A stretch of DNA of 64,000 nucleotides from Solirubrobacteraceae bacterium (GTDB lineage Bacteria; Actinomycetota; Thermoleophilia; Solirubrobacterales; Solirubrobacteraceae): the NCBI GenBank assembly GCA_050252545.1, contig JBFWKS010000001.1, forward strand, positions 3,932 to 67,931, in the 5' to 3' direction. Within the stretch, counting starts at the first letter, position 1. Every line of letters begins with the position of its first letter. Under the pieces are notes generated by a model. That model was not told the DNA's origin. It did not search any database and was given only the letters and a program-made list of their open reading frames with translations. This document shows, in pieces, positions 8,450-52,687 of the stretch. Made by a program: the position numbers and the translations under genes.

Positions 8450-9070
8450 TCAGGTCCTCGTGTCCGCCGTCGTGGGCAACCCCGCTCCGGGGGCCTCCAG
8501 CACCCGGTACGCCTCGTCCAGCAGCTCGAGCACCTCGCCGCCGCGTTCGATCCAGACGCGGAACGCGGCGGTCGATGCGCCCAGGCAGGCCTGGGCGACC
8601 GTGGTCGGCCGCAGGGCGTCGGGGTCGTCGTCGGTGTGGCGGGCGACGAACTCCGCGATCGCATCGCACCATTCGCGGTGGCGCAGCATCGCGTGGGCCT
8701 GCAGCGCGGGCACCGTCGTGATCAGGCGCATCCGCACCCGCAGCTCGGGCATCGCGTCGGGGCCGTAGTCGTTGAACGCGACGACCGCCCGACGGATCAC
8801 GGTCATCAGCGGCGTGTCGGGTGGTGCGGCGGCCAGGTGATCGCGGAATCGCTGGACGTGCGTGCGGAAGTCGCCCCAGACGATGTCGTGCTTGGACGGG
8901 TAGTAGCGGAAGAGCGTCCGGCGGCCGATCCCGGCGGCGGCGGCGATCGCGTCGACGGTCGTCGCGTCGTACCCGTCGCGATCGAAGAGCTCCAGGGCGA
9001 CCGACGTGATCCGTTCGGCCGAGGTGCTCGCCGGACGGCCGGGGCGGGCGGGTGGTGGTTGCGGGCTCAT
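8450..9070 (-). CDS. mftR: Mycofactocin system TetR-family regulator
   Basis: TetR HTH (IAAAAGIGRRTLFRYYPSKHDIVWGDF), RVRMRLITTVPALQAH; divergent from mftA. Confidence 0.9.
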   Translation of the reverse strand: MSPQPPPARPGRPASTSAERITSVALELFDRDGYDATTVDAIAAAAGIGRRTLFRYYPSKHDIVWGDFRTHVQRFRDHLAAAPPDTPLMTVIRRAVVAFNDYGPDAMPELRVRMRLITTVPALQAHAMLRHREWCDAIAEFVARHTDDDPDALRPTTVAQACLGASTAAFRVWIERGGEVLELLDEAYRVLEAPGAGLPTTADTRT

Positions 9071-9222
9071 GCGCGGTCCGAAGCATCGCCGGTGGCGCGG
9101 CGGGGTGCGCTCCCGCGCCCGCCGTGGGCGGCGCTCACGTCCGGTGGCGGACCGGCCTCGTGCCTCGGAGCCGGCCCACAGCGGAAGGCGGTGGATGAGG
9201 GCGTCTGCGCGACCAACCGATA

Positions 9223-9252
9223 TTGACACCGCGTGCCACGCGGTGGTATAAG
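9223..9252 (+). promoter_or_regulatory. Sigma70-type promoter of the mft operon
   Basis: TTGACA 9223-9228, 18-bp spacer, extended -10 TG-n-TATAAG 9244-9252. Confidence 0.75.
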
Positions 9253-9267
9253 ACGCGGGAATCGTCG

Positions 9268-9282
9268 TGGCACGCGATGCCG
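9268..9282. promoter_or_regulatory. MftR operator (GGCA-N5-TGCC core)
   Basis: TGGCACGCGATGCCG between promoter and mftA RBS; matches the known mycobacterial MftR operator core. Confidence 0.7.
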
Positions 9283-9305
9283 AAACCCGAGTAGCAGGAG
9301 AGCGC

Positions 9306-9443
9306 ATGACCGCCCCCGAAGTCACCGAGGCGTCCGTCGAGGAGTCGGCCGCCCGCGCCGAGGAGCCGGCGCCCGAGGCCCTCGTCGAAGAGGACCTCCT
9401 CGTCGAGGACGTCTCCATCGACGGCATGTGCGGGGTCTACTAG
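9306..9443 (+). CDS. mftA: Mycofactocin precursor peptide (45 aa)
   Basis: MTAPEVTEASVEESAARAEEPAPEALVEEDLLVEDVSIDGMCGVY*; diagnostic IDGMCGVY C-terminus; AGGAG RBS at 9296-9300. Confidence 0.97.
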   Translation: MTAPEVTEASVEESAARAEEPAPEALVEEDLLVEDVSIDGMCGVY

Positions 9444-9446
9444 CCC

Positions 9447-9779
9447 ATGCTCGGCACGACCTCCACGCCCGCCGGCCCGGACGCCCGCGGCGTCGCGGCG
9501 GACGCGGTGGTCGCCCTCGACGCCCCGTGGGCGCTGCATCCCCAGGTCGCGCTGCGTCCCGAGCGGTTCGGCGCGCTGGCCTACCACTTCGGCACCCGCC
9601 GGCTGTCGTTCCTGAAGAGCCCGCGGCTGCTCGCCGTCGTGCGTGCCCTGGACGACGCGGCGACCGTCCGCCACGCCTGCCTGACCGCCGGCATCGACGA
9701 GCGCGAGCTGCCGACCTACCGTCGCGCGCTCGACACCCTCGCCCGCACCGACATGATCGTCCCCCGGGAGCCCCGATGA
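9447..9779 (+). CDS. mftB: Mycofactocin RRE/PqqD-like chaperone
   Basis: WALHPQVALRPERFGALAYHFGTRRLSFLKS. Confidence 0.95.
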   Translation: MLGTTSTPAGPDARGVAADAVVALDAPWALHPQVALRPERFGALAYHFGTRRLSFLKSPRLLAVVRALDDAATVRHACLTAGIDERELPTYRRALDTLARTDMIVPREPR

Positions 9780-11260
9780 CCCCGCCCGCCCTCGCGGCCT
9801 CGGCGCCCGCCGGCGTCACGACCGTCGCTCCCGCACCGTCCCCGGCGTCGCCCGACACCGGCCTCCCGACCCCGCCGGAGCGCCCGGTCGGACGGCTCGT
9901 CGACGAGTTCCAGTCCGGCCTCGACGCACCGATCTGCCTGACCTGGGAGCTGACCTACGCCTGCAACCTGGCGTGCGTGCACTGCCTGTCCTCGTCGGGA
10001 CGCCGCGATCCGCGCGAGCTGTCGACGGCGGAGTGCACGGCCGTCATCGACGAGCTCCAGCGGATGCAGGTCTTCTACGTGAACATCGGCGGCGGTGAGC
10101 CGACGGTCCGCAAGGACTTCTGGGAGCTCGTCGACTACGCCACCGACCATCAGGTCGGGGTCAAGTTCTCGACCAACGGCTCGCGGATCGACGCCGACGT
10201 CGCCCGACGCCTCGCCTCCAGTGACTACGTCGACGTGCAGATCTCGCTGGACGGCGCGACGCCCGAGGTCAACGATCCCGTCCGCGGGCCCGGTACGTTC
10301 GACACCGCGATGACGGCGATGGGTCACCTCCGCGACGCCGGGTTCTCCGGGTTCAAGCTGTCGGTCGTCTGCACCCGCCACAACATCCCGCAGCTGGACG
10401 CGTTCAAGGCGATCGCCGACGAGTACGGCGCGCAGCTGCGCCTCACCCGGCTGCGCCCCTCCGGTCGCGGTGCCGACACGTGGGACGAGCTGCATCCGCT
10501 GCCGCACCAGCAGCGTGAGCTCTACGACTGGCTCGTCGCGCACGGTGACGACGTGCTCACCGGTGACTCGTTCTTCCACCTGGCCGCCTACGGTGACGCG
10601 CTTCCGGGACTGAATCTGTGCGGCGCCGGACGCGTGGTGTGCCTCATCGACCCCGTGGGTGACGTCTACGCGTGCCCGTTCGCGATCCACGACGAGTTCC
10701 TCGCCGGCAACGTCCGTGCCGACGGCGGGTTCCAGGGTGTGTGGCGCGAGTCGGAGCTGTTCCTCGAGCTGCGCGAGCCGCAGGCGGCGGGCGCGTGCAA
10801 CTCCTGCCAGTTCTTCGACAGTTGCCGCGGCGGCTGCATGGCCGCCAAGTTCTTCACCGGTCTGCCGATGGACGGCCCCGACCCGGAGTGCGTGCTCGGT
10901 CACGGCGAGGAGCTCCTGAAGCAGCGCGGCGACGCGCTGCTGCCCAAGCCGTCGGTCGACCGGTCCAAGCGACTGTCCAAGCGCCAGCGCCTGGAGCGGG
11001 CCGCGGCGGAGCGCGGGATCACCCTGCCACCGCAGACGGGCGAGACACCGCCACCGGACCTGCGCGCGATCACGCACGCACCCGACCGAGCGTGCGACGA
11101 GAGCCCGTTGGCGGGGTTCGCCGTGACGCCGCCCGACCGCCGACCGAACCAGGCGTGCGACGAGCGTCCGTCGGCCGCGCTCTCGGTGGAGGGCCACGAC
11201 GTCCCGGTGGTGCATCCCGGCGCTGCGTCGTCGGGCACCCGTCGTCGCGCGGCGTCCTGA
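9776..11260 (+). CDS. mftC: Mycofactocin radical SAM/SPASM maturase
   Basis: APICLTWELTYACNLACVHC, GGGEP, SPASM Cys cluster CNSCQFFDSCRGGC; ATGA overlap with mftB. Confidence 0.97.
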   Translation: MTPPALAASAPAGVTTVAPAPSPASPDTGLPTPPERPVGRLVDEFQSGLDAPICLTWELTYACNLACVHCLSSSGRRDPRELSTAECTAVIDELQRMQVFYVNIGGGEPTVRKDFWELVDYATDHQVGVKFSTNGSRIDADVARRLASSDYVDVQISLDGATPEVNDPVRGPGTFDTAMTAMGHLRDAGFSGFKLSVVCTRHNIPQLDAFKAIADEYGAQLRLTRLRPSGRGADTWDELHPLPHQQRELYDWLVAHGDDVLTGDSFFHLAAYGDALPGLNLCGAGRVVCLIDPVGDVYACPFAIHDEFLAGNVRADGGFQGVWRESELFLELREPQAAGACNSCQFFDSCRGGCMAAKFFTGLPMDGPDPECVLGHGEELLKQRGDALLPKPSVDRSKRLSKRQRLERAAAERGITLPPQTGETPPPDLRAITHAPDRACDESPLAGFAVTPPDRRPNQACDERPSAALSVEGHDVPVVHPGAASSGTRRRAAS

Positions 11261-12462
11261 TGGCCAGTACCCACACGTGGTTCGAGTCGGTCGCCGAGGC
11301 GGAGCGCCGCGCGCGCAAGCGGCTGCCGTCGTCGGTGTACGGTGCGCTGACGGCCGGTGCCGAGGCGGGGATCACCCGCGAGGACAACCTGCGAGCGTTC
11401 GGTGAGCTGGGCGTCGTACCGCGGATCGCCACCGGTCTGAGCGGCACCCGCGACGCGGCGACGACGGTGATGGGCCAGGACATCGCGATGCCGGTGCTCG
11501 TGTCGCCGACCGGCGTGCAGGCGGTGCACCCGCAGGCCGAGGTCGCCGTCGGGCGGGCGGCGGCCGCTGCAGGTATCGCCCAGGGCCTCTCGTCGTTCGC
11601 GAGCAAGCGGCTGACCGACGTCGTCGCCGTCAACCCTCAGACGCTGTTCCAGGTGTACTGGTTGGGTGACCGTGACCGGATCGTCCAGATCCTCGACGAC
11701 GCCCGGCGGGGCGGCGCGCGCGGGATCATCCTGACCCTCGACTGGACGTTCGCCCACCGTCGCGACTGGGGCAGCCCGGCGATCCCCGACGGCCTGGACC
11801 TGCGCACGATGATCCGGATGGCGCCCCAGGTGCTGCGCAGGCCGCGGTGGCTGCGCGACTACCTGCGTGACGGCGGGCCGCCGTCGCTGACCGTGCCGAA
11901 CATGGCGCCCCCCGGCGGTGACGCACCGACGTTCTTCGGTGCGTACGGCGAGTGGATGATGACCCCCGCGCCGACCTGGGACGACATCGCCTGGATGCGG
12001 AGCCAGTGGGACGGTCCGTTCCTCGTCAAGGGCATCTCGCACCCCGACGACGCGCGCCGGGCGGTACAGGCCGGGGCGAGCGCGATCTCGGTGTCCAACC
12101 ACGGCGGCAACAACCTCGACGGCACGCCGGCGACGATCCGGACGCTGCCCGCGATCGCCGACGCGGTCGGCGACGAGATCGAGGTGCTGCTCGACGGTGG
12201 CATCCGCCGCGGCAGCGACGTCGTCAAGGCCGTCGCGCTCGGTGCCCGTGCGGTGCTCGCCGGACGTGCGGTGCTGTGGGGCCTGGCCGCCGGCGGTCAG
12301 GCCGGCGTCGCCAACGTCCTGGAGATCCTGCGAGCCGGGATCGATGAGACGCTCAACGGCATCGGCCGCGCGTCGATTCACGATGTCACCCGCGACGATG
12401 TCGTCGTGCCCGACGGGTTCAGCCGCGTGCCCTCCCGCCCCGGAGCCGGATCGCGGACGTGA
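11260..12462 (+). CDS. mftD: Pre-mycofactocin synthase (FMN alpha-hydroxy acid dehydrogenase family)
   Basis: WFESVAEAERRARKRLP, DWTFAHRRDWGSP, SNHGGNNLDG, DGGIRRGSDVVKA. Confidence 0.95.
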   Translation: MASTHTWFESVAEAERRARKRLPSSVYGALTAGAEAGITREDNLRAFGELGVVPRIATGLSGTRDAATTVMGQDIAMPVLVSPTGVQAVHPQAEVAVGRAAAAAGIAQGLSSFASKRLTDVVAVNPQTLFQVYWLGDRDRIVQILDDARRGGARGIILTLDWTFAHRRDWGSPAIPDGLDLRTMIRMAPQVLRRPRWLRDYLRDGGPPSLTVPNMAPPGGDAPTFFGAYGEWMMTPAPTWDDIAWMRSQWDGPFLVKGISHPDDARRAVQAGASAISVSNHGGNNLDGTPATIRTLPAIADAVGDEIEVLLDGGIRRGSDVVKAVALGARAVLAGRAVLWGLAAGGQAGVANVLEILRAGIDETLNGIGRASIHDVTRDDVVVPDGFSRVPSRPGAGSRT

Positions 12463-12588
12463 CCGGGTGATCGGGGCCGGGCGCGACGGGTGACCGCCGC
12501 CGGCCCGGGTGCTGCGACTCCCGCACCGCCCGCGATCCCCACACCGTCCCGCGCCTTCCGCCGCCGCGACCCCGACACCGTCCCGACC

Positions 12589-13281
12589 ATGGCGCACCTG
12601 TCCGACATCACCTCGCCCGACCTTGCGCGTCGTCGGTCCGCGCTGCTGGTGGTGCCGGTGGGCGCGACCGAGCAGCACGGGCCCCACCTGCCGCTGACGA
12701 CCGACACCGAGATCGCGACGGCGCTCGCCGACGGCCTCGACCGCGAGCGGGACGACGTCGTCGTGGCACCGGCGGTCGCGTTCGGCGCGAGCGGCGAGCA
12801 CCAGGCCTTCCCCGGCACGCTGTCGATCGGAACCACCGCGACCGAGCTGTTGCTCCTCGAGCTCGGCCGGTCGGCGACCGAGACCTTCGACCGCGTGCTC
12901 TTCCTGTCGGCGCACGGCGGCAACGCCGAAGCGGTCAACGGCGCCACCGCACGCCTGCGCGAGGAGGGTCGTGACGTCCGCGCGTGGGCGCCACGGTGGG
13001 ACGGCGATGCGCACGCCGGGCACGTCGAGACGTCGATCATGCTCGTGCTCGCGCCCGAGCGGGTCCGGGCGCACGCGGCGACCGTCGGCACGGTCGAGCC
13101 GCTCGGCGAGCTGCTGCCGCGGATGCGCCGTGAGGGTGTGGCGGGCGTCAGCGCCAACGGGGTCCTCGGCGACGCGACGACCGCGTCCGCCGACGCGGGT
13201 CGCACACTGCTGCGGGTCGCCGCGCAGGACCTGCGGGCCACCGTCGCCCGATGGGACGCGGAGCGGGTCGGTGTCGTCTAG
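12589..13281 (+). CDS. mftE: Mycofactocin creatininase-family peptidase
   Basis: GATEQHGPHLPLTTD, SGEHQAFPGT, AHGGN, DAHAGHVETS; start could be upstream GTG 12490. Confidence 0.92.
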   Translation: MAHLSDITSPDLARRRSALLVVPVGATEQHGPHLPLTTDTEIATALADGLDRERDDVVVAPAVAFGASGEHQAFPGTLSIGTTATELLLLELGRSATETFDRVLFLSAHGGNAEAVNGATARLREEGRDVRAWAPRWDGDAHAGHVETSIMLVLAPERVRAHAATVGTVEPLGELLPRMRREGVAGVSANGVLGDATTASADAGRTLLRVAAQDLRATVARWDAERVGVV

Positions 13282-13312
13282 TACCGCCGGCCCGTCCGGA
13301 CCGGCCGCGTGG

Positions 13313-14875
13313 ATGCAACCGGTCGGCCGGGGCCCGGCGCGCGGTCGCGGCGACGGGGCGGCGCAGGCCACCCGCCCGGACGGCACCGATCCGCTGCCCG
13401 AGGGGTTCGGACTGGTCCTCGACCGCGACACCCGGCGCCACGCCGGAGGCACCGTGCTCGTCGGAGGATGGCCGCGGCGGGTCATACGGTTGCGGGCCGC
13501 CGGTGCCGCCGCGGTCGACACGCTGCTGCGTGGCGAGCCGACGAGCCACGCGGGCCGGACGTTGGCCCGTCGGCTCGTCGACGCGGGGCTGGCGCACCCC
13601 GTACCGCCCGACGCCGGGGTGCCGCATCGCGTCGATCCGCGGATGCCGCAGGGCACTCCTCCCGCCGGCGGGCCGGCGCACGCCGGCCCGTCCGCGGATG
13701 GCCTCGCCTCAGCCGACGTGACCGTCGTCATCCCGGTCCGTGACCGGCCGTCCGAGTTGGCCCGCTGTCTGGCCGCGCTCGGCGGTGACGTGGCCGTGGT
13801 CGTCGTCGACGACGGGTCGAGCGCTCCCGACGCGGTCCGGGCCGTGACCGACGCCGCCCATGCGACGCTCGTGCGCCGCGAGACCGGCGGCGGCCCGGCG
13901 GCCGCCCGCAACGAGGGCCTGCACCACGTCACCGCGCCGCTCGTCGCGTTCCTCGACAGCGACTGCGTGCCGCCCGCAGGGTGGCTCGCGCCCCTCGTCG
14001 GGCACCTGTCCGACCCGACCGTCGTGGCGGTCGCCCCGCGCGTCCGCGGTGCGGCGACCGGCGACACGACCGCGCGCCGGTGGGGGAGGGCACGATCGCC
14101 GCTCGACCTCGGTGGTCGGCCCGGACGGGTCGCCCCCGGCACGCCGATCGCCTACGTCCCGACCGCGGCGCTCGTCGTGCGTCGCGCGGCGCTCGCCGGC
14201 CAGGACGGCCCCTTCGACCCGGCGCTGCGCCACGGCGAGGACGTCGACCTGATCTGGCGCCTGCATGACGCGGGCGGCACGATCCGTTACGAGCCGGCCG
14301 TCGTCGTCGAGCACCACGAGCCCGCATCGTGGGCCGAGCTGCTCGTGCGGCGGTGGCGGTACGGCACGTCGGCCGGTCCGCTCGCCCGCCGTCACGGACG
14401 ACGGCTCGCCCCGGTCGTCCTCGCGCCGGTCCCGACCGCGGCGGCCGTCGCCGCGCTCTCGGGTCGACCGCGGGCGGCGCTCGCGATCGCACTGGCACAG
14501 GGCATCCGGCGCGGCCGGCGCATCCAGCGGGCGGGCGCACCCGCGTGGTACGGGCCGCTCTGGTCGCTGCGCTCCGCCGTCCAGGCCACCGACGGGCTGG
14601 CCCGCACCGCGACGATGCTCGCCCCCGCGGCGCTCCCGGTGCTCGCGATCGCGCGACCGCGACTGGCACGGCGCGTCCTGGGGGCGGTCGTCACGGCACC
14701 GCTGGCGCGCTGGGCCGGGGCCCGCCGCGACGGCACCGCCGGGGGCCTCGGGCCGCTGCGCTGGGCCGCGGCGTCGATCGCCGACGACCTCGCGTACGGC
14801 CTCGGGGTGTGGGCGGGGGCGCGCCGCTCGCGCGACGCACGTGCCCTCCTGCCGGTGCGGGAGACGCCGGCGTGA
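13313..14875 (+). CDS. mftF: Mycofactocin glycosyltransferase (GT2)
   Basis: VVIPVRDR, VVDDGS, GPAAARN, FLDSDC, GEDVDL, YGTSAGPL; start uncertain (GTG 13271 also in frame). Confidence 0.92.
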   Translation: MQPVGRGPARGRGDGAAQATRPDGTDPLPEGFGLVLDRDTRRHAGGTVLVGGWPRRVIRLRAAGAAAVDTLLRGEPTSHAGRTLARRLVDAGLAHPVPPDAGVPHRVDPRMPQGTPPAGGPAHAGPSADGLASADVTVVIPVRDRPSELARCLAALGGDVAVVVVDDGSSAPDAVRAVTDAAHATLVRRETGGGPAAARNEGLHHVTAPLVAFLDSDCVPPAGWLAPLVGHLSDPTVVAVAPRVRGAATGDTTARRWGRARSPLDLGGRPGRVAPGTPIAYVPTAALVVRRAALAGQDGPFDPALRHGEDVDLIWRLHDAGGTIRYEPAVVVEHHEPASWAELLVRRWRYGTSAGPLARRHGRRLAPVVLAPVPTAAAVAALSGRPRAALAIALAQGIRRGRRIQRAGAPAWYGPLWSLRSAVQATDGLARTATMLAPAALPVLAIARPRLARRVLGAVVTAPLARWAGARRDGTAGGLGPLRWAAASIADDLAYGLGVWAGARRSRDARALLPVRETPA

Positions 14876-16395
14876 CCGTCGCCGCCGACCCCGCCGACCG
14901 CTACGACGTGATCGTGGTCGGCGCCGGGTCGTCGGGCTGCGTCCTCGCGACGCGGCTCACCGACGAGCCGGGCCGCCGCGTCCTGCTGCTCGAAGCCGGG
15001 GCGGTCCACCCGGACGAGGCGTCGTATCCGGCGGAGCTGCGCGACGAGCGGACGCTCCCGCAGGCCCCGCTGTGGGAGTACGAGGGCATCACCACCGGTC
15101 GGCCGGGGAAGGCGGGCCGGTCGAGCCGGGTCGTCCGCGGACGGGTGCTCGGCGGGTCGGGCGCGGTCAACGGGATGCTCTACCAGCGCGGCCTGCCCGA
15201 GGACTACGACCGCTGGGGCCTGGCGCGCTGGAGCGCCGCCGCGCTGGAGCCCGCCTTCGAGCGGGTCGAGCGGATCCCGATCCGCCGCCTCGGCCGCGAG
15301 CACTGGGCACCGAGCCACGTCGCCTTCCACGACGCCCTGCGCGAGCTCGGCCACCCGGTCAACCCCGACCCGTCACGCGCCGAGCACCAGGGCGTCGGCG
15401 CGACCGCACGCAACTCCGACGGCGAGCGGAGGATGAGCGCTGCGCTCGCCTACCTGATGCCCGTCATCGGTCGGCAACAGCTCGCGGTGACGGGCGACGC
15501 GACGGTCGGCCGGGTCGCGGTCCGCAACGGTCGCGTCGTCGGGCTGGACGTGCGGATCGGCGGCCGCGACCGGCGGATCACGGCCGACGAGGTCGTGCTC
15601 GCGGCCGGCGCGATCGAGACCCCGCAGATCCTCGTCCGGTCCGGCATCGGCGCGCCGGACGACCTGCGGCGGCTCGGGATCACGCCCACCGTCGGGCTGC
15701 CGGGCGTCGGCCGCAACCTCACCGACCATCCGTCGGTCGTCGTCGCGGTCCGCCTGCGACCCGAGGTGCGTCGTGGCGACCTGCGCTTCCTCGTCGGGCT
15801 CGTCGCCACCTCCGGCCACGCCCAGCGACACGGTGGGCGGAGCGACCTGCAGACCCTCGTGATGTCGGGCCCGTACGTCGCCGACGACGGTGCCCGCCTA
15901 CCACCCGCCGACGACCCGCGGACCGTCGACGCGATCCTCACCCCGATCCTCAACGCGCCCGAGAGCGTCGGCCGGATCGAGATCCGCAGCGCCGACGGGT
16001 CGCGCCCGCCACGGATCCACTACCGCTACCTGGAGGCGCCGGGCGACCGCGAGCGCCTGCGTGAGGCGGTGCGGACCGCCGTCGACGTCGTCGAGCATCC
16101 GGCGTTCGCCCCGCTCGTTGCCGACGACGCCGGCGTGCCCGTCCCCGCCATCCGAGAGGACGACGCCGCACTCGACGCGTGGATCGCCGGCGCGCTGCGC
16201 ACCACGCTCCACGGCTGCGGCACCTGCCGGATGGGACCCGACGACGACCCCGACGCGGTCGTCGACGATCGCTGTCGCGTGCGCGGGGTCGACGGCCTGC
16301 GGATCGTCGACCTGTCGATCGTCCCGCGGGTCCCGACCGCTCCGCCGAACGCCACCGCGATGGCGATCGCCGAGCACGCCGCGACGTGGATCTGA
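14872..16395 (+). CDS. mftG: GMC oxidoreductase, MftG by position
   Basis: GAGSSG FAD motif, GGSGAVNG, LHGCGTCRMG, RVRGVDGLRIVD; GTGA overlap with mftF. Confidence 0.8.
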   Translation: MTVAADPADRYDVIVVGAGSSGCVLATRLTDEPGRRVLLLEAGAVHPDEASYPAELRDERTLPQAPLWEYEGITTGRPGKAGRSSRVVRGRVLGGSGAVNGMLYQRGLPEDYDRWGLARWSAAALEPAFERVERIPIRRLGREHWAPSHVAFHDALRELGHPVNPDPSRAEHQGVGATARNSDGERRMSAALAYLMPVIGRQQLAVTGDATVGRVAVRNGRVVGLDVRIGGRDRRITADEVVLAAGAIETPQILVRSGIGAPDDLRRLGITPTVGLPGVGRNLTDHPSVVVAVRLRPEVRRGDLRFLVGLVATSGHAQRHGGRSDLQTLVMSGPYVADDGARLPPADDPRTVDAILTPILNAPESVGRIEIRSADGSRPPRIHYRYLEAPGDRERLREAVRTAVDVVEHPAFAPLVADDAGVPVPAIREDDAALDAWIAGALRTTLHGCGTCRMGPDDDPDAVVDDRCRVRGVDGLRIVDLSIVPRVPTAPPNATAMAIAEHAATWI

Positions 16396-16466: not shown

Positions 16467-17030
16467 GTGCTCCTGCGCCACGAACACCTGCTCGACGGGC
16501 TCGTCACGCTCTTCCTGGCCGAGGGCTTCCGGCAGTTCCGGGTCGCGGACCTCGCCGCGCGGATGAAGTGCTCCAAGTCGACGCTCTACGCGCTGGGCGA
16601 CAGCAAGGAGCGGGTGACCGTCGCGGTCGTCGCACGGTTCTTCCAGACCGCGACGCGGTTCGTCGAGGGACGCACCGCTCAGCATCCACCGGGCCCCGAG
16701 CGGGTCGCCGCGTACCTGGCGGCCGTCGCCGACGCCCTGCGGCCGGCGTCGGCGCGGTTCATGGAGGACCTGGCCGAGGACCCCGCGACGCGGCGGATCT
16801 ACGAGCGCAACACCACCCAGGCCGCCAGCCGTGTCCGCGAGCTCATCGCCGAGGGCGTGGCGTCCGGGGAGTTCCGCGACGTCCACTCCGAGTTCGCCGC
16901 CGACGCCGTCGCGTCCACGATGGCCCGGATCCAGCGGGGCGAGGTGCGCCGCCACACCGGGCTGCGCGACGCCGAGGCGTACGAGGAGCTGACCGCGCTC
17001 CTGCTCCGCGGGATCCGCTCGCCGGGCTGA
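16467..17030 (+). CDS. TetR-family regulator
   Basis: ADLAARMKCSKSTLYALG HTH; TAGACT -10-like hexamer upstream. Confidence 0.85.
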   Translation: MLLRHEHLLDGLVTLFLAEGFRQFRVADLAARMKCSKSTLYALGDSKERVTVAVVARFFQTATRFVEGRTAQHPPGPERVAAYLAAVADALRPASARFMEDLAEDPATRRIYERNTTQAASRVRELIAEGVASGEFRDVHSEFAADAVASTMARIQRGEVRRHTGLRDAEAYEELTALLLRGIRSPG

Positions 17031-17978: not shown

Positions 17979-18082
17979 CTGTGGTGCTCCTTGGGTCGGG
18001 CGGGACGTCGAGATCCCGCGCAGAGATGGTGTGGGAGACGCGGACCCGCCCGTGGCGGTCGGCGCTCCGGAGTGCCGTGGGG

Positions 18083-42420: not shown

Positions 42421-42427
42421 GACGGAT

Positions 42428-45389: not shown

Positions 45390-45791
45390 TCAGACGGCGG
45401 CGCCGTCCTTCTCCGCGACCATCTCGCGGTACATCGGGAAGAGCGGCTTGGTCAGCGGCACGAGCTTGAGGATCTTGGCGACCGGGCCCTTCGCCTTGAC
45501 CTGGCCCTTGGCCAGACCGACGGCGAGGTTGTACTCGCCGCGCCAGAACTTGTCGCCGATGTCCGACGGCATGTAGAGCTTGACGTCGGCGTCCTCGTTC
45601 TCGGTGTCGTCGAGCACCTCGAGCTTGGGCTCGTGCATCTTGATCAGGACCTTCGCGTCCGGATCGCTGTAGTAGACCTGCAGGTCGATGTCGGCGGCGG
45701 CGAGCTTGGCGCCCTCCGGCGTGTCGGCGGCCTTGCGGAACACGCCACCGAGGTACTGCTCGACCTCTTCGCGGTCCTTGAAGTAGGGCAT
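45390..45791 (-). CDS. SCP2 sterol-carrier domain protein
   Basis: KFWRGEYNLAVGLAKGQVKAKGPVAKILKLVP. Confidence 0.85.
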   Translation of the reverse strand: MPYFKDREEVEQYLGGVFRKAADTPEGAKLAAADIDLQVYYSDPDAKVLIKMHEPKLEVLDDTENEDADVKLYMPSDIGDKFWRGEYNLAVGLAKGQVKAKGPVAKILKLVPLTKPLFPMYREMVAEKDGAAV

Positions 45792-46045
45792 CGTCGCTCC
45801 CGTCGTCGGTGATTCACGGCGTGGTGATCACGCCTACGACGAACGTATCCCCGCCCGACCGGTTCGCGCGATCGTCTCGTCGGGGGATGTTCCTCCTCCC
45901 TTCTGCGCGGCGGCGGATGATCGCGCGGGCACAACGGGGAACACGGCGTCATCCGGGGTATCAAGCTCTCCCGATCGACGCATGGGCCGGTCCGGCACGC
46001 GCGGTTAGCGTCGGGCTGCAGCTGTCACAGACCCCGGGAGGACCC

Positions 46046-47146
46046 ATGCAAGCCACCGCCGCCGTGTTGCGCGAAGTCGACAAGCCGATGGTCGTCGAGA
46101 CCGTCCAGATCGACGAGCCCCAGGAGGACGAGGTCCTCGTCGCGATCAAGGGCGTCGGGATCTGCCACACCGACATGACGGTGATGGACGGCACGCTGCC
46201 GATCCCGCTGCCGACGGTGCTCGGGCACGAGGGCGCCGGCATCGTCGAGAAGGTCGGCTCCGCGGTGACGAACGTCGCCCCCGGCGACCACGTCGTCCTG
46301 AGCTTCGGGCACTGTCGCGAGTGCGAGGTCTGCGAGTCCGGCCGGCCCGCGTACTGCGAGCTGTTCGCGCCGCTGAACTACTTCGGCACCCGCCTCGACG
46401 GCACCGTCACGCTGCACAACGGCGACGAGGACGTCCACGGCAACTGGTTCCAGCAGTCGTCGTTCGCCAGCCACGCGATCGCGAAGGCGACCAACACGGT
46501 CAAGGTCACCAGCGACGTGCCGATCGAGCTGCTCGGCCCGCTCGGCTGCGGCATCCAGACCGGCGCCGGCACCGTGCTCAAGGTCCTCCAGCCGAAGGCC
46601 GGTCAGAGCATCGCGATCTTCGGCCTCGGCGGGGTCGGCCTGGCGGCGCTCATGGCCGCGAAGGCCGTCGGGTGCGACCCGATCGTCGCGATCGACACCA
46701 ACGCCGAGCGGCTCGATCTGGCGATGGAGCTCGGCGCCACGCACCGGTTCAACCCGAAGGAGCACCACGACCTGCTGTGGGACGTCCAGCAGGTCACGGC
46801 GTCGGGGGTGGACTTCTCGTTCGAGACCGTCGGGACCGGCGAGATCGTCCGCCAGGCGCTCGAGGTGCTCCGCTCGCCCGGGCACGCCGCGAGCGTCGGG
46901 TTCCGCGGCCTGGAGAACCTGATCACGATCGACCAGGGCCACCTGATGCTCGGTCGCCGGCTGTCGGGCGTCATCGAGGGCGATGCCGACCCGCAGACCT
47001 TCATCCCCGAGATGATCGACCTGTACCGCGAGGGCCGGTTCCCGTTCGACCGGCTGATCGAGAAGTTCACGCTCGACCAGATCAACGAGGCCGTCGAGGC
47101 GTCCGCGTCGGGCCGCGTCATCAAGCCGGTCGTCGTCTTCGACTGA
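46046..47146 (+). CDS. Zn-dependent alcohol dehydrogenase (aryl-alcohol/geraniol dehydrogenase-like)
   Basis: GICHTD, GHEGAG, CRECEVC...YC structural Zn, LGPLGCGIQTGAG, GLGGVG. Confidence 0.92.
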   Translation: MQATAAVLREVDKPMVVETVQIDEPQEDEVLVAIKGVGICHTDMTVMDGTLPIPLPTVLGHEGAGIVEKVGSAVTNVAPGDHVVLSFGHCRECEVCESGRPAYCELFAPLNYFGTRLDGTVTLHNGDEDVHGNWFQQSSFASHAIAKATNTVKVTSDVPIELLGPLGCGIQTGAGTVLKVLQPKAGQSIAIFGLGGVGLAALMAAKAVGCDPIVAIDTNAERLDLAMELGATHRFNPKEHHDLLWDVQQVTASGVDFSFETVGTGEIVRQALEVLRSPGHAASVGFRGLENLITIDQGHLMLGRRLSGVIEGDADPQTFIPEMIDLYREGRFPFDRLIEKFTLDQINEAVEASASGRVIKPVVVFD

Positions 47147-47156: not shown

Positions 47157-48392
47157 TCAGCCGGTCAGCTCGCGTCCGATCAGGGCGCGGGCGATGACCC
47201 ACTGCAGCACCTCGTTGGCGCCCTCGAAGATCTCCAGGATCTTGGCGTCGCGGTAGATCTCCTCCAGCCGGTAGGTCTCGCCGGTGGCGCCCATCTGCCG
47301 CGCGAACCCGTAGCCGCCGTGGACCTGCAGCGCGTCGCGGGCGACGTCGTTGGCGAGCTTCGTGGCGAACGACTTGGCCATCGACGCCTCCGGCTCGCCG
47401 GACCGGTCCCCGCGATCCAGCCGCACCGCGGCCTTCTGGTACATCGACCGCGCCGCCTCCAGGTGGGTGGCGTGCTCGGCCAGGCGGTACTGCCAGTGCT
47501 GCATCTCGCCGAGCTTGCGCCCGAACAGCTCACGGGTGTGCAACCGCTGGACGGCCAGATCGAGCGCCGCCTGTGCGACCCCGACCCCGGCGGCGCCGAT
47601 CCCGACCCGGCCGGCGGCCAGCGACGCCAGCGCGGCACCCAGGCCCCGGCCCGGCTCGCCGAGGACGTGGTCCTCGGGCACGAAGACGTCCTCCAGCACG
47701 ATGTCGGCGGTGATCTGGCCGCGGTGGCCCATCTTGAGATCGGGCTCCTCGACCCGCACCCCGTCGGCGTGCATGTCCACCAGCAGGAACGTCAGCGCCG
47801 GCCGGTCGCCGTCGCGGCAGAGCATGCAGCACCAGTCGGCCACGACGCTGTTGGTGATCCACCGCTTGCGCCCGCTGACGCGGAAGCCACCGTCGACCGG
47901 CTCGGCGACGGTCTTCAGCGCGGTCGGCGTCAGGTCGGAGCTGGCGTCCGGCTCGGTCGTGGCGAACGCGAACGCCGACTCGCCGCTGATCAACGGGGGC
48001 AGCAGCCGGTCCTGCACGTGCGGGCGGGCGAAGCTCAACGCCCGGGCGTTGAGGATGCACTGCCCGTCGTAGACGCCGGCCATCGACGAGGACTCGTAGG
48101 CGATCTCCTCGGTCACCAGGCAGGTCGCGAGGATCGGGTGCTCGAGCCCTGCGCCGTGCGGGGCGGGGAACGGCACCGCGAAGCACCCCTCCGCCGCCAG
48201 GCCGCGGAACGCCTCCCACGGGAACGAGTCGCGGGACTCCTCGCGCTGGGCGATGTCGCGGGCGACCGGGGCCAGGTGCCGCTCGACCGCGCTCCGTGCC
48301 ATCGACCGGACGTGCTCGACGTCGGGCGGCAGGAACACGTCGTGCCAGGTGCGGTCCTGGGTGCGGGGCGGGTTCGCGGTCGCGTCGCTCAT
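47157..48392 (-). CDS. Acyl-CoA dehydrogenase
   Basis: FATTEPDASSD, GRKRWITN, KMG, EIFEGANEV. Confidence 0.9.
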   Translation of the reverse strand: MSDATANPPRTQDRTWHDVFLPPDVEHVRSMARSAVERHLAPVARDIAQREESRDSFPWEAFRGLAAEGCFAVPFPAPHGAGLEHPILATCLVTEEIAYESSSMAGVYDGQCILNARALSFARPHVQDRLLPPLISGESAFAFATTEPDASSDLTPTALKTVAEPVDGGFRVSGRKRWITNSVVADWCCMLCRDGDRPALTFLLVDMHADGVRVEEPDLKMGHRGQITADIVLEDVFVPEDHVLGEPGRGLGAALASLAAGRVGIGAAGVGVAQAALDLAVQRLHTRELFGRKLGEMQHWQYRLAEHATHLEAARSMYQKAAVRLDRGDRSGEPEASMAKSFATKLANDVARDALQVHGGYGFARQMGATGETYRLEEIYRDAKILEIFEGANEVLQWVIARALIGRELTG

Positions 48393-48513
48393 CCCCCGAT
48401 CCTGACCGGTCGACCTCGCTTCCGCGATCGGCCGTGCGGGAGAGCTTCGCCGTCCGCGCGGGTGACGTGCCGAACGCCCCGCTCACGGCGGGGCCTCGCG
48501 GTGGCGCGGGCGA

Positions 48514-48529: not shown

Positions 48530-48616
48530 GCGGAACCTCCCGGCGGGCCGATGGCGGTGCCGTACCCCGGTGCGCGAGACTGGGTCGCCCCCATCGCCGA
48601 CGACGGAGATCGCTTC

Positions 48617-50164
48617 ATGCACCCTGGTGCCCACCCTGCCGACCACACCGCCATCGTCATGGCCGACTCCGGGGAGACGGTGACCTACGGCGAGCTCGAC
48701 GCATCCGCCAACCGGATCTCGCGGGTCATGCGCTCCCTCGGCCTCGGCGTCGGCGACCACATGGCGCTCTGCATCGAGAACCGTCGGGAGATCTTCGACG
48801 TCCTCTGGGGCGCCCACGACGCCGGCCTGCTGTACACGGCGCTGTCGACGCGTCTCGGCGCCGACGAGATGGCCTACATCGTCCAGGACTGCGGCGCCCG
48901 CGTGTTCGTGCTGTCGGCCCGCTACGCCGACCTGGCCGACGAGGTCCGTGCCGCCACCCCCGGCGTCGAGCACCACCTGAGCCTCGGTGGCGAGATCCCC
49001 GGGTGGACGGCGCTGGAGGACCTGATGGCCGAGCAGTCCGACCAGCCGCTCGACGAGCAGCGGATCGGCGGCAAGGACATGCTCTACTCGTCGGGCACCA
49101 CCGGGCGTCCCAAGGGCATCCGGCCCAAGGAGCTCGAGGCACCGCTCGACGCCTCCCCGATCATCGTCACGCCGATCCTCGGCGGCAAGCTCGGTGTCGG
49201 TCCCGGGTCGGTGTACCTCACCCCGGCGCCGATGTACCACGCGGCCCCGCTGCGGTTCTCGATGGCGATCCACCAGCTCGGCGGCACCGTCGTGCTGATG
49301 GAGCGGTTCACCCCCGAGCGCGCGCTCGAGCTCATCGCCGGCCACGGCGTCACCCACACGCAGATGGTGCCGACGATGTTCGTGCGGATGCTGCGCCTGC
49401 CCGCTTCGGCGCGCGACGCCGCCGACGTGTCGTCGTTGAAGGTCGTCATCCACGCCGGGGCACCCTGCCCGCGCGAGGTCAAGCAGCAGATGATCGACTG
49501 GTGGGGCCCGATCATCCACGAGTACTACGCGTCGACCGAGGGCGCCGGCCTGACCTGGGTGACGAGCGAGGAGTGGGTCTCGCACCCCGGCACGGTCGGG
49601 CGCGCGGCGATCGGCACCCCGCGGATCCTCGCCGAGGAGGAGGACGTGGAGCTGCCCGTCGGGCAGACCGGCCGGGTGTTCTTCTCGGACGGCCCGCAGT
49701 TCGAGTACCACAACGATCCCGACAAGACCCGTGGCGCGCACAGCAGCCAGGGCTGGTCGACGGCCGGTGACATCGGCCACCTGGACGAGGAGGGGTTCCT
49801 GTACCTCACCGACCGGGCGTCGTTCATGATCATCAGCGGCGGGGTCAACATCTACCCGCAGGAGTCCGAGAACGTCCTGGCGTCCCACCCCAAGGTCATG
49901 GACGCGGCCGTGTTCGGGATCCCCGACGAGGACTTCGGGGAGTCGGTCAAGGCGGTGATCCAGCCGATGGAGATGCCCGCCGACGACGCGGCCGCCGCGG
50001 CGCTGGAGGCCGAGTTGATCGCCCACTGCCGCGCGCAGCTGGCGGACCTCAAGTGCCCCCGCAGCATCGACTTCCGTGCGGAGCTGCCCCGGCACGAGAC
50101 CGGCAAGCTCTACAAGCGCCTGCTGCGCGACGAGTACCGCGAGCGGGCCGCCGCCGGCGCGTAG
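48617..50164 (+). CDS. Acyl-CoA synthetase (AMP-forming)
   Basis: YSSGTTGRPKG, YASTEG, GDIG, IISGGVNIYPQE, ETGKLYKR; start uncertain. Confidence 0.92.
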   Translation: MHPGAHPADHTAIVMADSGETVTYGELDASANRISRVMRSLGLGVGDHMALCIENRREIFDVLWGAHDAGLLYTALSTRLGADEMAYIVQDCGARVFVLSARYADLADEVRAATPGVEHHLSLGGEIPGWTALEDLMAEQSDQPLDEQRIGGKDMLYSSGTTGRPKGIRPKELEAPLDASPIIVTPILGGKLGVGPGSVYLTPAPMYHAAPLRFSMAIHQLGGTVVLMERFTPERALELIAGHGVTHTQMVPTMFVRMLRLPASARDAADVSSLKVVIHAGAPCPREVKQQMIDWWGPIIHEYYASTEGAGLTWVTSEEWVSHPGTVGRAAIGTPRILAEEEDVELPVGQTGRVFFSDGPQFEYHNDPDKTRGAHSSQGWSTAGDIGHLDEEGFLYLTDRASFMIISGGVNIYPQESENVLASHPKVMDAAVFGIPDEDFGESVKAVIQPMEMPADDAAAAALEAELIAHCRAQLADLKCPRSIDFRAELPRHETGKLYKRLLRDEYRERAAAGA

Positions 50165-50217
50165 GACCGACCGGGCCGCCTCGCCGACCGGCGCGGCGGT
50201 CCGGGAGGACGTCGGGG

Positions 50218-50343
50218 GCGGGAGTGTTGCAACACCGGCGTTCCACGTCCGCAACGCAGCACACCCCGCCACCGGCCACCTACCGACTCGGGGGTGCGCT
50301 GCAGAACCGGCGCCCACGGTCCGCAACGCAGCACACCCCCGAG
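50218..50343. repeat. Two tandem REP/MITE-like palindromic units
   Basis: Units 50218-50269 and 50287-50343 share exact GTCCGCAACGCAGCACACCCC (50247-50267, 50319-50339); unit 2 has 15/16-bp terminal inverted repeats. Confidence 0.75.
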
Positions 50344-50387
50344 CCCGCACGGCTCCGCCCGCCGGGCGCAGGCCCGGCGGCGCGCGG

Positions 50388-51677
50388 TCAGGCCTTCTTC
50401 GGGGTCCACGCGGCCTGCGCCGCGTGGATGCCGTGGATGAAGTTGTTGATCTGGAACTCGGGCGGCGCGGTGAGGTGCAGGTCGGGCATGCGGGTGTAGA
50501 CCTCCTGCATCGACGCCTTGATCATCTGCCGGCCGAGCGCCGAGCCGATGCAGAAGTGCGGTCCGCCCGCGCCGAACGCCATGTGCCGGTTGGGCTTGCG
50601 CTGGATGTCGAACCTGCGCGGGTCGTCGAACTGGTCCTCGTCGAAGTTGCCCGAGCAGTACCACAGCACGCACTTGTCGCCGGCCTTGATCTCCTGGCCG
50701 TTGACGACGACGTCCTTGGCCGCGGTGCGCCGGAAGTGCTGGACCGGGCTGGAGTAGCGGAGGACCTCCTCGACGGCGGTGTCGATCCGGCCGTCCATGT
50801 CCTCCCGCAGCAGCGCGAGCTGGTCGGGGTTCTCGTCGAACAGCCGGAACATGTGCCCGATCGAGTGGCGCGTGGTGTCGTTGGCGGCCGACGCGAGCAG
50901 CGAGAAGAACGCGGCGATCTCCCAGTCGTCCAGGGTCCGGTCCTCGAACTTCGCGTTGACGACCCAGCTGACGAGGTTCTCGGCCGGATGCTCGCGGTAG
51001 TGGTCGGCGCGCGCCATCGCGATCGACTGGATCCGGTCGGCCTCCTCGGCGAACGTCGTCAGCGCGTCGCGGCCGAGGGCGCAGTTCGGGTCGTCCCACG
51101 CGAGCATCCGCTCGGCGGCCTCCATGATGGTGTACATGTCGTCGCTGCCGGCGTCGACGCCGAAGAAGAACGCGAAGATGCGGCCCGGGAGCTGCTTGGC
51201 GTACAGGTCGACGATGTCGCCCTCGCCCCGCTCGATGATCTCGTCGACGAGCTCCGTGGCCAGGCCGTTGATCCAGTCGTCGATCTTGCGGACGTTGCGC
51301 GGCGTGAACGCCTGCGACACGATCCCGCGGACCTGCCGGTGGTCGACGCCGTCCATGGCCAGGAACGACGTCGTGGCGAGCGTCACCACCTCGGGCATGT
51401 CCTCCATGAGGATGCCCTTGCCGCTGATGAAGGTCTCCGCGTCGCGGGAGACCCGGCGGCAGTCCTCCCACTTCGTGATCGCCCAGAACCCGGGCGTGTC
51501 GTCGTCCGGGGGCAGCAGCGTCGACTCGTACGCGCGGTGGTACGACACCGGGTGGTTCTCGCGGAAGAAGCGGAACGTGTCGTCACGCTCGATGAACGGC
51601 TTCTCCCAGAAGCTGCGGGCGGCGAGGTCGTGCTCGGGGCTCCACGACGGATGACGGACGTCGACCTGGGTGCTCAT
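50388..51677 (-). CDS. Cytochrome P450, paralogue 2
   Basis: ASAANDTT, EEVLR, FGAGGPHFCIG; clearly homologous to 42550-43869. Confidence 0.95.
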   Translation of the reverse strand: MSTQVDVRHPSWSPEHDLAARSFWEKPFIERDDTFRFFRENHPVSYHRAYESTLLPPDDDTPGFWAITKWEDCRRVSRDAETFISGKGILMEDMPEVVTLATTSFLAMDGVDHRQVRGIVSQAFTPRNVRKIDDWINGLATELVDEIIERGEGDIVDLYAKQLPGRIFAFFFGVDAGSDDMYTIMEAAERMLAWDDPNCALGRDALTTFAEEADRIQSIAMARADHYREHPAENLVSWVVNAKFEDRTLDDWEIAAFFSLLASAANDTTRHSIGHMFRLFDENPDQLALLREDMDGRIDTAVEEVLRYSSPVQHFRRTAAKDVVVNGQEIKAGDKCVLWYCSGNFDEDQFDDPRRFDIQRKPNRHMAFGAGGPHFCIGSALGRQMIKASMQEVYTRMPDLHLTAPPEFQINNFIHGIHAAQAAWTPKKA

Positions 51678-51712
51678 GGTCGAAGTGTCCTCCCGGCCGG
51701 CGCCCGTGACCA

Positions 51713-51728
51713 TCGTCCGTCCGGGAGA
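51713..51728. promoter_or_regulatory. Candidate regulator site between P450-2 and hydrolase
   Basis: A-TCGTCCG-TC-CGGGAGA-G. Confidence 0.55.
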
Positions 51729-51823
51729 GATCCACGTGCCGCGTGGATGAGCCGTTCGTCCCGGAGACCCGTCCCGACCGTGGCCCGGGTCTGTCCCCGG
51801 CGGCGTTGCGTAGCATCCTCGGG

Positions 51824-52687
51824 ATGTCCGGCACCGTCCCGTCGCCCGTCCCGATGCCGTTCACGCACGGGGCCCGAGAGGTCACGCTGGCGGGAGATCG
51901 CTGGGACGGTGCGGCGCCACCGGTGCTCATGCTCCACGGCGGGGGGCAGACCCGGCACTCGTGGGACCGGACCGCCCGGCGCCTGGCCGCCGACGGCCGT
52001 GCGGCGATCACGCTCGACGCCCGCGGCCACGGCGACAGCGAGTGGCATCCCGACGGCGACTATTCGATCGACGGCCTCGTCGAGGATCTGCTCGGGTTCG
52101 TCGCCACGCTCGACGCGCCGCCGGTGCTCGTCGGGGCGTCGATGGGCGGCATGACGTCGCTCGTCGCGTGCGGCGAGAACCCCGGTCTGGCCGCGGGCAT
52201 CGTGCTCGTCGACGTGGCCGTGCAGGTCGAGTCGAAGGGGGTCCGGCGGATCCTGGACTTCCTCGCCGCGCACCGCGACGGGTTCGGGTCGCTCGAGGAG
52301 GTGGCCGCCGTGATCGCCGAGTACAACCCGCACCGGCCGCCGTCGGAGAACCTCGACGGGCTGCGCAAGAACGTGCGTCAACGCGATGACGGTCGCTGGT
52401 ACTGGCACTGGGACCCGCGGTTCGTCGACATCCCGGACGAGGCCCGCCGGACCGCGTCGGTCGAGCGCCTCGAGCGTGCCGCCCGGTCGCTGGACGTGCC
52501 GGTGCTGCTCGTGCGCGGCGGGAGCTCCGACGTGCTCACGCCCGAGGGCGCCGAGCACATGCTGAGCCTGGTCCCGTCGGCGGAGCTGGCCGACGTCAGC
52601 GGCACCGGCCACATGCTCGTCGGCGACGACAACGACGTCTTCTCGACGAAGCTCGACGCGTTCCTGCAGCGGGTCGCGGCGGCCTGA
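51824..52687 (+). CDS. Alpha/beta hydrolase
   Basis: HGGGQT, DARGHGDS, GASMGG, GHMLVGD; TAGCAT + 7 nt + ATG. Confidence 0.88.
   Translation: MSGTVPSPVPMPFTHGAREVTLAGDRWDGAAPPVLMLHGGGQTRHSWDRTARRLAADGRAAITLDARGHGDSEWHPDGDYSIDGLVEDLLGFVATLDAPPVLVGASMGGMTSLVACGENPGLAAGIVLVDVAVQVESKGVRRILDFLAAHRDGFGSLEEVAAVIAEYNPHRPPSENLDGLRKNVRQRDDGRWYWHWDPRFVDIPDEARRTASVERLERAARSLDVPVLLVRGGSSDVLTPEGAEHMLSLVPSAELADVSGTGHMLVGDDNDVFSTKLDAFLQRVAAA

Follow-up and report, generated by a model that had tools for sequence, protein, structure and literature searches.

The stretch of DNA analysed here (the window) is 64,000 nucleotides long and lies on contig C1 (JBFWKS010000001.1) of a Solirubrobacteraceae bacterium, a soil actinobacterium whose genome (G000) is a metagenome-assembled genome (MAG) of 4.53 Mb in 480 contigs, 94% complete. 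Within it, the 44-kb region from 8450 to 52687 contains a mycofactocin (mft) cluster, a beta-oxidation gene pair, a Mce lipid importer, an operon for triacylglycerol (TAG) storage preceded by a cytochrome P450 gene, and a second P450 gene accompanied by an alcohol dehydrogenase (ADH) and a fatty-acid-CoA ligase (FACL). A first-pass annotation, made from the sequence alone, had proposed that all of these form one integrated system of lipid import, P450 oxidation, mycofactocin and storage; our analysis favours a neighbourhood of separately inherited modules, some of which may cooperate. Genes were called with a codon-usage model on the window, which is 73% G+C, and their products were scanned against Pfam and NCBIfam. 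Every gene of the earlier inventory was found where it had been placed. The features of the region are the following.

8450–9070, minus strand: MftR, TetR-family regulator of the mft cluster (TIGR03968, 234.5 bits, cut-off 224.9; Pfam TetR_C_14)
9227–9245, unstranded: 19-bp palindrome CACCGCGTGCCACGCGGTG, candidate MftR operator overlapping the mftA promoter (inverted-repeat scan and sequence)
9267–16395, plus strand: mftA-B-C-D-E-F-G, mycofactocin biosynthesis and MftG dehydrogenase (NCBIfam equivalogs)
16467–17030, plus strand: TetR2, second TetR-family regulator (Pfam TetR_N and TetR_C, weak)
17214–19228, minus strand: acyl-CoA dehydrogenase 1 (ACAD1) then SDR, beta-oxidation pair (Pfam; PDB matches)
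19549–31633, plus strand: Mce operon of SCP2-like open reading frame (ORF), MlaF-type ATPase, YrbEA, YrbEB, MceA-F and accessory ORF (Pfam)
31670–31840, minus strand: rubredoxin (two CxxCG motifs; Pfam Rubredoxin, 82.8 bits)
31996–33270, plus strand: PucR-family (Rv1453-like) regulator (Pfam HTH_30 and GGDEF_2; NF050824, 145 bits, below cut-off)
33596–34879, plus strand: GAF-LuxR regulator 1 (Pfam GAF and GerE)
35290–42304, minus strand: Kennedy-pathway operon of PlsB-type glycerol-3-phosphate acyltransferase (GPAT), HAD-PlsC, GpsA, wax ester synthase/diacylglycerol acyltransferase (WS/DGAT) and alpha/beta hydrolase (Pfam, NF002886)
42426–42435, minus strand: CGGGAGAGAT motif between P450_1 and GPAT, 17 nt identical to the site at 51722
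42550–43869, minus strand: P450_1, CYP268/124-like, same strand as GPAT and directly upstream of it (PDB 6bld, CYP268A2, E 1e-98)
44129–45361, plus strand: GAF-LuxR regulator 2, candidate local regulator of the P450_2 module (Pfam)
45390–45791, minus strand: SCP2b lipid-carrier protein (Pfam SCP2)
45964–45973, minus strand: CGGGAGAGCT motif between the divergent SCP2b and ADH genes, kept in two relatives (G004 and G013)
46046–47146, plus strand: Zn-dependent ADH, benzyl-alcohol type, not mycofactocin type
47157–48392, minus strand: ACAD2, acyl-CoA dehydrogenase (Pfam; PDB)
48437–48446, plus strand: CGGGAGAGCT motif in the ACAD2/FACL divergent region
48551–50164, plus strand: FadD4-like FACL (Pfam AMP-binding; NF038341, 610 bits, cut-off 850)
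50388–51713, minus strand: P450_2, sister paralogue of P450_1 (PDB CYP268A2, E 1e-96)
51722–51731, plus strand: CGGGAGAGAT motif between the divergent P450_2 and hydrolase-2 genes, kept in the closest relative (G005)
51743–52687, plus strand: alpha/beta hydrolase 2, divergent from P450_2 (Pfam Abhydrolase_1)

Judged from strand changes and intergenic gaps, the region holds at least 11 transcription units, and five regulators are encoded locally (MftR, TetR2, the PucR-family protein and the two GAF-LuxR proteins), which makes it a gene neighbourhood rather than an operon. Scans of 34-53 kb for sigma-70 promoters and intrinsic terminators gave none above shuffle controls.

The TAG operon is of the type that the first-pass annotation had named. 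Its GPAT (gene at 40076-42304) scores 821 bits with NF002886 against a cut-off of 721, the HAD-PlsC fusion combines HAD-IB and AGP_acyltrn domains, and the WS/DGAT contains WS_DGAT_cat and WS_DGAT_C domains above the Pfam thresholds, reaching 281 bits versus 310 with TIGR02946. From GPAT through WS/DGAT, the genes overlap by 4-17 nt. The operon resembles the Kennedy-pathway cluster of Mycobacterium tuberculosis, Rv2482c (plsB2)-Rv2483c (plsC, HAD fusion)-Rv2484c (Tgs)-Rv2485c (lipQ) (PMC10699116), in that GPAT, the HAD-PlsC fusion and WS/DGAT come in the same order and a hydrolase follows. It differs by the insertion of GpsA, by the P450 gene directly upstream and by the adjacent Mce and SCP2 genes; its hydrolase is of the Hydrolase_4 type (monoacylglycerol-lipase-like), for which a likeness to LipQ is not established. 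In a synteny sample of 80 GPAT loci from Actinomycetota, ascertained through GPAT, the order GPAT-HAD/PlsC-WS/DGAT is near-universal (75 and 72 of the 80 loci). GpsA is inserted at nine of them, most of the taxonomically labelled ones being Solirubrobacterales MAGs. A P450_1-like gene is found at 12, mostly in Actinomycetospora and directly upstream of GPAT; nine have an SCP2b-like gene. Among cultured relatives, Paraconexibacter sp. AEG42_29 carries a TAG/SCP2/LuxR locus (L037).

The two P450s are 53% identical and are sisters in the tree (support 99/98). Together with the TAG-adjacent P450s, one poorly extracted sequence (L100) aside, they form a clade with 100/100 support, and the 12 other P450 paralogues of G000 that were long enough to be included fall outside it. 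For both, the top PDB matches are CYP268A2 (6bld), CYP124A1 (2wm4) and CYP125 (3ivy), which bears out the earlier assignment of two related enzymes to the CYP124/125/142/268 clan; these mycobacterial omega-hydroxylases are the best sequence matches, with E values of 1e-96 to 1e-99 to CYP268A2. The ADH and acyl-CoA ligase genes nearby are what would be expected for omega-oxidation, in likeness to the CYP124/268/125 systems. Unlike in the mycobacterial clan, no ferredoxin or reductase gene is adjacent, and one P450 copy lies on the same strand as a TAG synthesis operon. A P450 from a distant actinobacterial family, encoded beside a Zn-ADH gene (G109:C1:4833423-4835800, L113), shares 67% identity with P450_1; it is closer to P450_1 than is the paralogue in the window, which hints at horizontal transfer.

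Around P450_2, the ADH has benzyl alcohol dehydrogenases (5tnx, 1f8f) as its nearest structures, in agreement with the aryl-alcohol type named previously. Two SCP2 carriers had also been named. The SCP2 fold of SCP2b is confirmed at the level of its AF2 model (pLDDT 86), for which the Foldseek matches are all SCP2 domains (SCP2, UbiJ and alkylsulfatase SCP2 domains; TM 0.58-0.73). For SCP2a, the SCP2-like ORF of the Mce operon, the evidence consists of a Pfam SCP2 score of 19.4 bits and a pairwise E value of 4e-8 to SCP2b; both proteins stay below the Pfam gathering score of 21.3 (SCP2b with 20.8 bits). The convergent FACL/P450_2 spacer contains two direct copies, 75 bp apart, of an element of about 23 bp (TCCGCAACGCAGCACACCCC core) at 50244-50268 and 50318-50342.

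In the Mce operon, Pfam MlaE (PF02405) is matched twice and MlaD (PF02470) six times, the six MlaD-domain proteins being encoded at 22732-30796. The stop of SCP2a (19549-20115) overlaps the start of the ATPase gene (20115-20990), whose product matches Pfam ABC_tran and, as the best NCBIfam model, MlaF with 227 bits, below the equivalog cut-off of 441. The last gene, the accessory ORF at 30821-31633, has no Pfam or NCBIfam match and is conserved after MceF in G005 and G013. Mycobacterial Mce transporters, among them Mce1 for fatty acids and Mce4 for cholesterol (PMC5487216), likewise have two YrbE permeases, six Mce proteins and an accessory ORF. The operon in the window differs from them in encoding the ATPase and the SCP2-like protein internally, and in being one of about 14 such operons in the genome. 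This family is unusually expanded in G000, with examples on contigs C5, C7, C10, C15, C16, C42, C45, C49, C50, C98, C159 and C220.

Downstream of the importer, the rubredoxin is, by position only, a candidate redox partner of the P450s. Rubredoxin homologues occur within 10 kb of a TAG operon in a member of the Paraconexibacteraceae (L042, 74% identical) and in Pseudonocardia parietis (L063, 55%). GAF-LuxR proteins have 15 paralogues in the genome, several of them beside Mce, P450 or FACL genes. After GAF-LuxR regulator 1, a 107-codon frame with high GC3 (34880-35200) has a counterpart of 93% identity in G005, where it forms the 3' end of a much longer stretch (G005:C1, about 28500-31284). It is probably the remnant of a gene deleted in G000, to which a 3.5-kb segment of G005 has been reduced here; neither the frame nor the segment has an informative Pfam match.

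The mft cluster has the gene set and order of the known clusters, with mftR divergent, MftA (9267-9443; TIGR03969, 50.1 bits, cut-off 25) ending in IDGMCGVY and a palindrome over the mftA promoter. The scores of MftB (chaperone), MftC (radical-SAM/SPASM maturase), MftD, MftE, MftF and MftR are each above the cut-off of the respective NCBIfam equivalog. The differences from the known system are three: the GMC oxidoreductase abutting mftF (14872-16395) matches MftG best but stays just under the model cut-off (TIGR03970, 362.4 bits versus 387.45); no recognised mycofactocin-dependent dehydrogenase is encoded in the window; and the operator sequence seems unrelated to the mycobacterial 27-bp operator. 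TTGACA, the 19-bp palindrome and TATAAG follow one another in the mftR/mftA spacer, and relatives keep this layout of -35 box, palindrome and TAGAAG/TATAAG box, the palindromes themselves being different. The palindrome at 9227-9245 is plausibly the MftR operator, by analogy with the operator mapped in Mycobacterium smegmatis, where long-chain acyl-CoA releases MftR (PMC8728441). In the convergent spacer between TetR2 and the SDR gene, a 15-bp unit (GTGACGCCACCCC-like) is repeated in tandem about six times (17104-17204).

Beyond this spacer lies the beta-oxidation pair. ACAD1 (18083-19228, minus strand) is a short-chain acyl-CoA dehydrogenase by Pfam, with PDB match 3nf4, and the SDR (17214-17978, minus strand) is a type-II 3-hydroxyacyl-CoA dehydrogenase with PDB matches 4o5o, Rv1144 and HSD17B10, so that its HSD17B10-type label holds. 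Mycofactocin had been expected to serve the local alcohol oxidation, which the profile scores do not support. The Zn-ADH reaches 256 bits with TIGR03989 (Rxyl_3153 subfamily; cut-off 440), nearly equalled by a class III ADH model with 243 bits, and the SDR about 77 bits with TIGR03971 (cut-off 300). By these models, both lie outside the mycofactocin-dependent families; the best candidate for a TIGR03971-type SDR in G000 is on another contig (C21:6760-7569; 286 bits versus the cut-off of 300).

Forty relatives were searched (15 of the same genus, nine of other genera of the family and 16 of the same order), and all window proteins were then compared by tblastn with fetched regions; because G000 and several relatives are fragmented MAGs, calls of absence are provisional, and related genomes are not independent samples. 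Among the 15 genus members, the PlsB-type GPAT is found in five, Mce orthologues in nine and mftC in ten, with mftC in none of the 25 genomes outside the genus; P450_2 orthologues (at least 74% identity) are found in eight genomes. The combinations and locations of the blocks differ from one genome to the next. The complete 44-kb layout recurs only in G005, the closest relative, itself a Solirubrobacteraceae MAG. There the whole order is kept, but neither ACAD2 nor FACL stands between ADH and P450_2, and a 3.5-kb segment is present that G000 does not have. No mftR precedes the G005 mft operon (G005:C1:296-2600, L004), the mftR orthologue (80% identical) lying on another contig, C29; a second Mce operon, represented by a MceF-like gene and an accessory ORF, stands directly upstream of mftA. 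TetR2 is at the mft site only in G000 and G005 (90% identical), and was seen beside mft or SDR-ACAD1 in no other relative.

In the complete genome G001, mft is located at 0.78 Mb, FACL, ACAD2-P450_2 and SDR-ACAD1 at 4.94 Mb (the SDR-ACAD1 pair adjoining ACAD2-P450_2, not mft) and diverged TAG genes at 5.01 Mb. In G002, mft stands by itself; in G008, G009 and G011 mft lies beside two other SDRs and a different Zn-ADH, and in G006 (two loci) and G015 there is no Mce operon within 10-20 kb of it. In G003, G004, G007 and G013 mft was not found; the P450 module is kept in the last three, as FACL-P450_2-ADH-SCP2b-LuxR2 in G004, and G003 has TAG and Mce genes. Since combinations and locations vary to this extent, the blocks are not co-conserved as one unit, and the conservation across relatives that the first-pass annotation had looked for is largely contradicted by a full layout confined to G005. 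Membership of the mft block in the proposed unit, in particular, is not supported, as its neighbours vary and other blocks are retained where it was not found.

Part of the proposal is supported. Recurrent links, seen in relatives and at a paralogous locus, join the importer, the P450/ADH/FACL/SCP2 module and the TAG operon, but not mft or the full layout. The Mce-TAG link is seen at a second locus, on G000:C10 (9-18906) and G003:C17 (L029/L030), at 38-67% identity and in the same convergent layout: YrbEAB-MceA-F and an SCP2b-like gene, then hydrolase-WS/DGAT-GpsA-PlsC-GPAT on the opposite strand. The Mce-P450_2 link is seen in G013, in which neither mft nor GPAT was found and an SCP2a-type Mce operon directly abuts FACL-ADH-SCP2b-P450_2-LuxR2; GAF-LuxR2 travels with SCP2b-ADH-P450_2 in G005, G004 and G013. 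The third recurrent pair is P450-TAG, also present in Actinomycetospora.

The reading that we favour, with a probability of roughly 0.6, is that the region is a dense lipid-metabolism neighbourhood of five separately inherited and regulated modules, of which modules 3 to 5 cooperate loosely and mft is an undedicated neighbour. Module 1, mftR with mftA-G, would provide mycofactocin synthesis and re-oxidation, probably under the operator at 9227-9245, and module 2, ACAD1-SDR, would act as a beta-oxidation pair. Module 3 would be the SCP2a-ATPase-YrbEAB-MceA-F importer with the rubredoxin, the PucR regulator and a GAF-LuxR regulator; module 4, P450_1-PlsB-HAD/PlsC-GpsA-WS/DGAT-hydrolase, the predicted Kennedy-pathway storage operon; and module 5, GAF-LuxR2-SCP2b-ADH-ACAD2-FACL-P450_2, would serve terminal oxidation and activation. 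Loose cooperation between modules 3, 4 and 5 may then proceed by Mce importing a hydrophobic lipid, an SCP2 protein shuttling it and a CYP268/124-like P450 hydroxylating its terminal or sub-terminal carbon. The ADH and the FadD4-like ligase would give acyl-CoA, destined either for beta-oxidation through the ACADs and the type-II 3-hydroxyacyl-CoA dehydrogenase of modules 2 and 5 or for TAG and wax esters through module 4. On this reading, the mft cluster came to lie here when the G000/G005 lineage was recently rearranged, and it has no dedicated part in the lipid route; because mft clusters in the genus move independently of the lipid genes, adjacency alone is weak evidence for a role of mycofactocin.

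Several observations weigh against this reading, the first of them from an even sample of 200 genomes of the phylum, an unbiased check on P450_1. In it, the closest P450_1 homologues (38-67% identity) lie 53-565 kb from GPAT or in a genome without GPAT. With the 80 loci having been ascertained through GPAT and the homologues of the phylum sample being so far away, P450-TAG adjacency is recurrent but limited to certain lineages; an ancestral TAG-adjacent origin of the P450 clade was rejected as ascertainment bias, the closest homologues in the 200 genomes not being beside GPAT. The Pfam scan of window genes brought up no ferredoxin or ferredoxin reductase that could serve the P450s. Some proximity of mft to importer genes is seen in G005, with Mce operons on both sides of mft, and in G001, with an SCP2a-type Mce operon 13 kb from mftR. 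A Mce operon thus lies near mft in G000, G005 and G001, which make two independent cases among eight assessable loci; at about 14 operons per genome, the chance of one within 15 kb of any locus is about 15% (a rough estimate), so the proximity is not in excess. A soft regulatory link between mft and the lipid genes via acyl-CoA is possible, by analogy, because MftR responds to acyl-CoA in M. smegmatis (PMC8728441).

A shared cis element counts among the links of modules 3 to 5. The 10-mer CGGGAGAG[AC]T has 23 copies in the genome, mostly inside genes; four intergenic copies fall within 9.3 kb (42.4-51.7 kb) versus about 0.05 expected, a post hoc statistic, as the 10-mer was defined from its own sites. 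G004, G013 and G005 retain the ADH and P450_2 sites in part. The first-pass annotation had mentioned promoter motifs shared by the blocks; one 10-mer, in four intergenic regions, was found, and no motif linking all blocks. The mft promoter has no copy and the Mce promoter a variant only. When 17 intergenic regions were searched for a motif common to all promoters, by k-mers (up to one mismatch) and by inverted repeats, nothing but GC-rich words of low information came out. A Shine-Dalgarno role for CGGGAGAG fits the hydrolase-2 site only (13-nt spacing), the other three sites lying about 55-170 nt from the nearest start. A genome-wide lipid regulon was also rejected, because the other intergenic copies adjoin tatA, priA and similar genes. 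The inverted repeat GTGGAC-N5-GTCCAC has six matches with up to two mismatches versus 7.4 expected by chance, so that this consensus does not describe a repeated operator. A palindrome, ATCCACG-N5-CGTGGAT (51731-51749), directly adjoins the CGGGAGAGAT site in the 29-bp P450_2/hydrolase-2 spacer.

Modules 3 to 5 could form a coordinated supercluster for import, hydroxylation and esterification, with GAF-LuxR control exerted via CGGGAGAG[AC]T. P450_1 heads the storage operon, and WS/DGAT might therefore act directly on P450-made alcohols. Imported hydrocarbons or isoprenoid lipids, once converted by the P450 to alcohols or omega-hydroxy acids, would in this way be esterified to wax esters or hydroxy-acyl TAGs. 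We consider this stronger version of the cooperation rather unlikely.

Compared with such coupling, chance juxtaposition in a genome saturated with lipid genes would require no functional relation at all, and is more doubtful still. In its favour, block order varies among relatives, and G000 encodes about 28 YrbE proteins (about 14 Mce operons), about 60 Mce genes, 19 P450s, about 31 acyl-CoA ligases and about 33 ACADs, along with 15 GAF-LuxR and 12 PucR proteins, often adjoining one another; with so many Mce operons and P450s, a high density of lipid genes is to be expected in any case. If each Mce operon, P450, FACL, ACAD and WS/DGAT is taken as one unit, there are about 102 in 4.53 Mb, or about one per 44 kb, whereas the region has seven. 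This places it above random scatter by a rough Poisson estimate that is blind to the clustering of lipid genes in general, which does occur. Against chance there are also the clustering of the 10-mer in the region, the second Mce-TAG adjacency at the paralogous locus, the Mce operon abutting the P450_2 module in G013, and the P450-TAG adjacency in a different class.

Recent exchange must be weighed as well. Nucleotide identity to G005 (G005:C1) is mosaic, with 97-100% over 22000-31000 (YrbEB to MceF, about 9 kb), 98-99% over the P450_2 stretch (50394-51750) and 68-91% in flanking genes elsewhere, a pattern that points to lineages having recently recombined or exchanged DNA, or to MAG cross-assembly. 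The whole region could accordingly be a lipid-utilisation island recently exchanged by horizontal transfer or recombination between Solirubrobacteraceae lineages, its linkage owing nothing to long-term selection. The indels of ACAD2-FACL and of the 3.5-kb segment, the displaced mftR of G005 and the P450_1 homologue in a distant family fit this proposal, which is nevertheless very improbable: the region showed neither an integrase, a transposase or a tRNA nor a break in composition, the high-identity tracts could be cross-assembly artefacts, and exchange is compatible with functional coupling.

It is equally improbable that all blocks, mycofactocin included, make up a single import, oxidation, storage and cofactor system in which pathway acyl-CoA induces mft and mycofactocin serves the alcohol oxidation, since the adjacency of all blocks in G000 and G005, the Mce operons near mft in G005 and G001 and the acyl-CoA response of the M. 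smegmatis MftR (PMC8728441) are outweighed by the differing mft neighbours in G002, G006, G015, G008, G009 and G011, by the four genomes that retain other blocks where mft was not found, by an ADH and SDR that are not of the mycofactocin type, and by Mce-mft proximity that is not in excess of chance.

As a neighbourhood of modules, the region combines elements of known kinds, namely an mft biosynthetic gene cluster, a Mce transporter, a Kennedy cluster of the Rv2482c type and omega-oxidation genes of the CYP124/268 type. New are their arrangement in Solirubrobacteraceae, the recurrent pairing of Mce and TAG genes, and the P450 and SCP2 genes in or beside the TAG operon; we know of no previous description of a bacterial operon for neutral-lipid storage with a P450 built in. 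Thermoleophilia are abundant in soil, with few cultured members and poorly known carbon sources. The roughly 14 Mce operons, the 19 P450s and the two Mce-adjacent TAG operons point to a lifestyle of scavenging lipids or hydrocarbons. If the coupling of Mce, P450 and TAG genes is functional, lipid import would be tied to neutral-lipid storage at the level of the gene cluster, and a P450-dependent route into wax esters would be suggested as well. Just upstream of mftR and outside the region proper, 5040-8428 encodes another glycerolipid-related pair, an FAD-linked oxidase (FAD_binding_4 and FAD-oxidase_C) and a GlpD-type glycerol-3-phosphate dehydrogenase.

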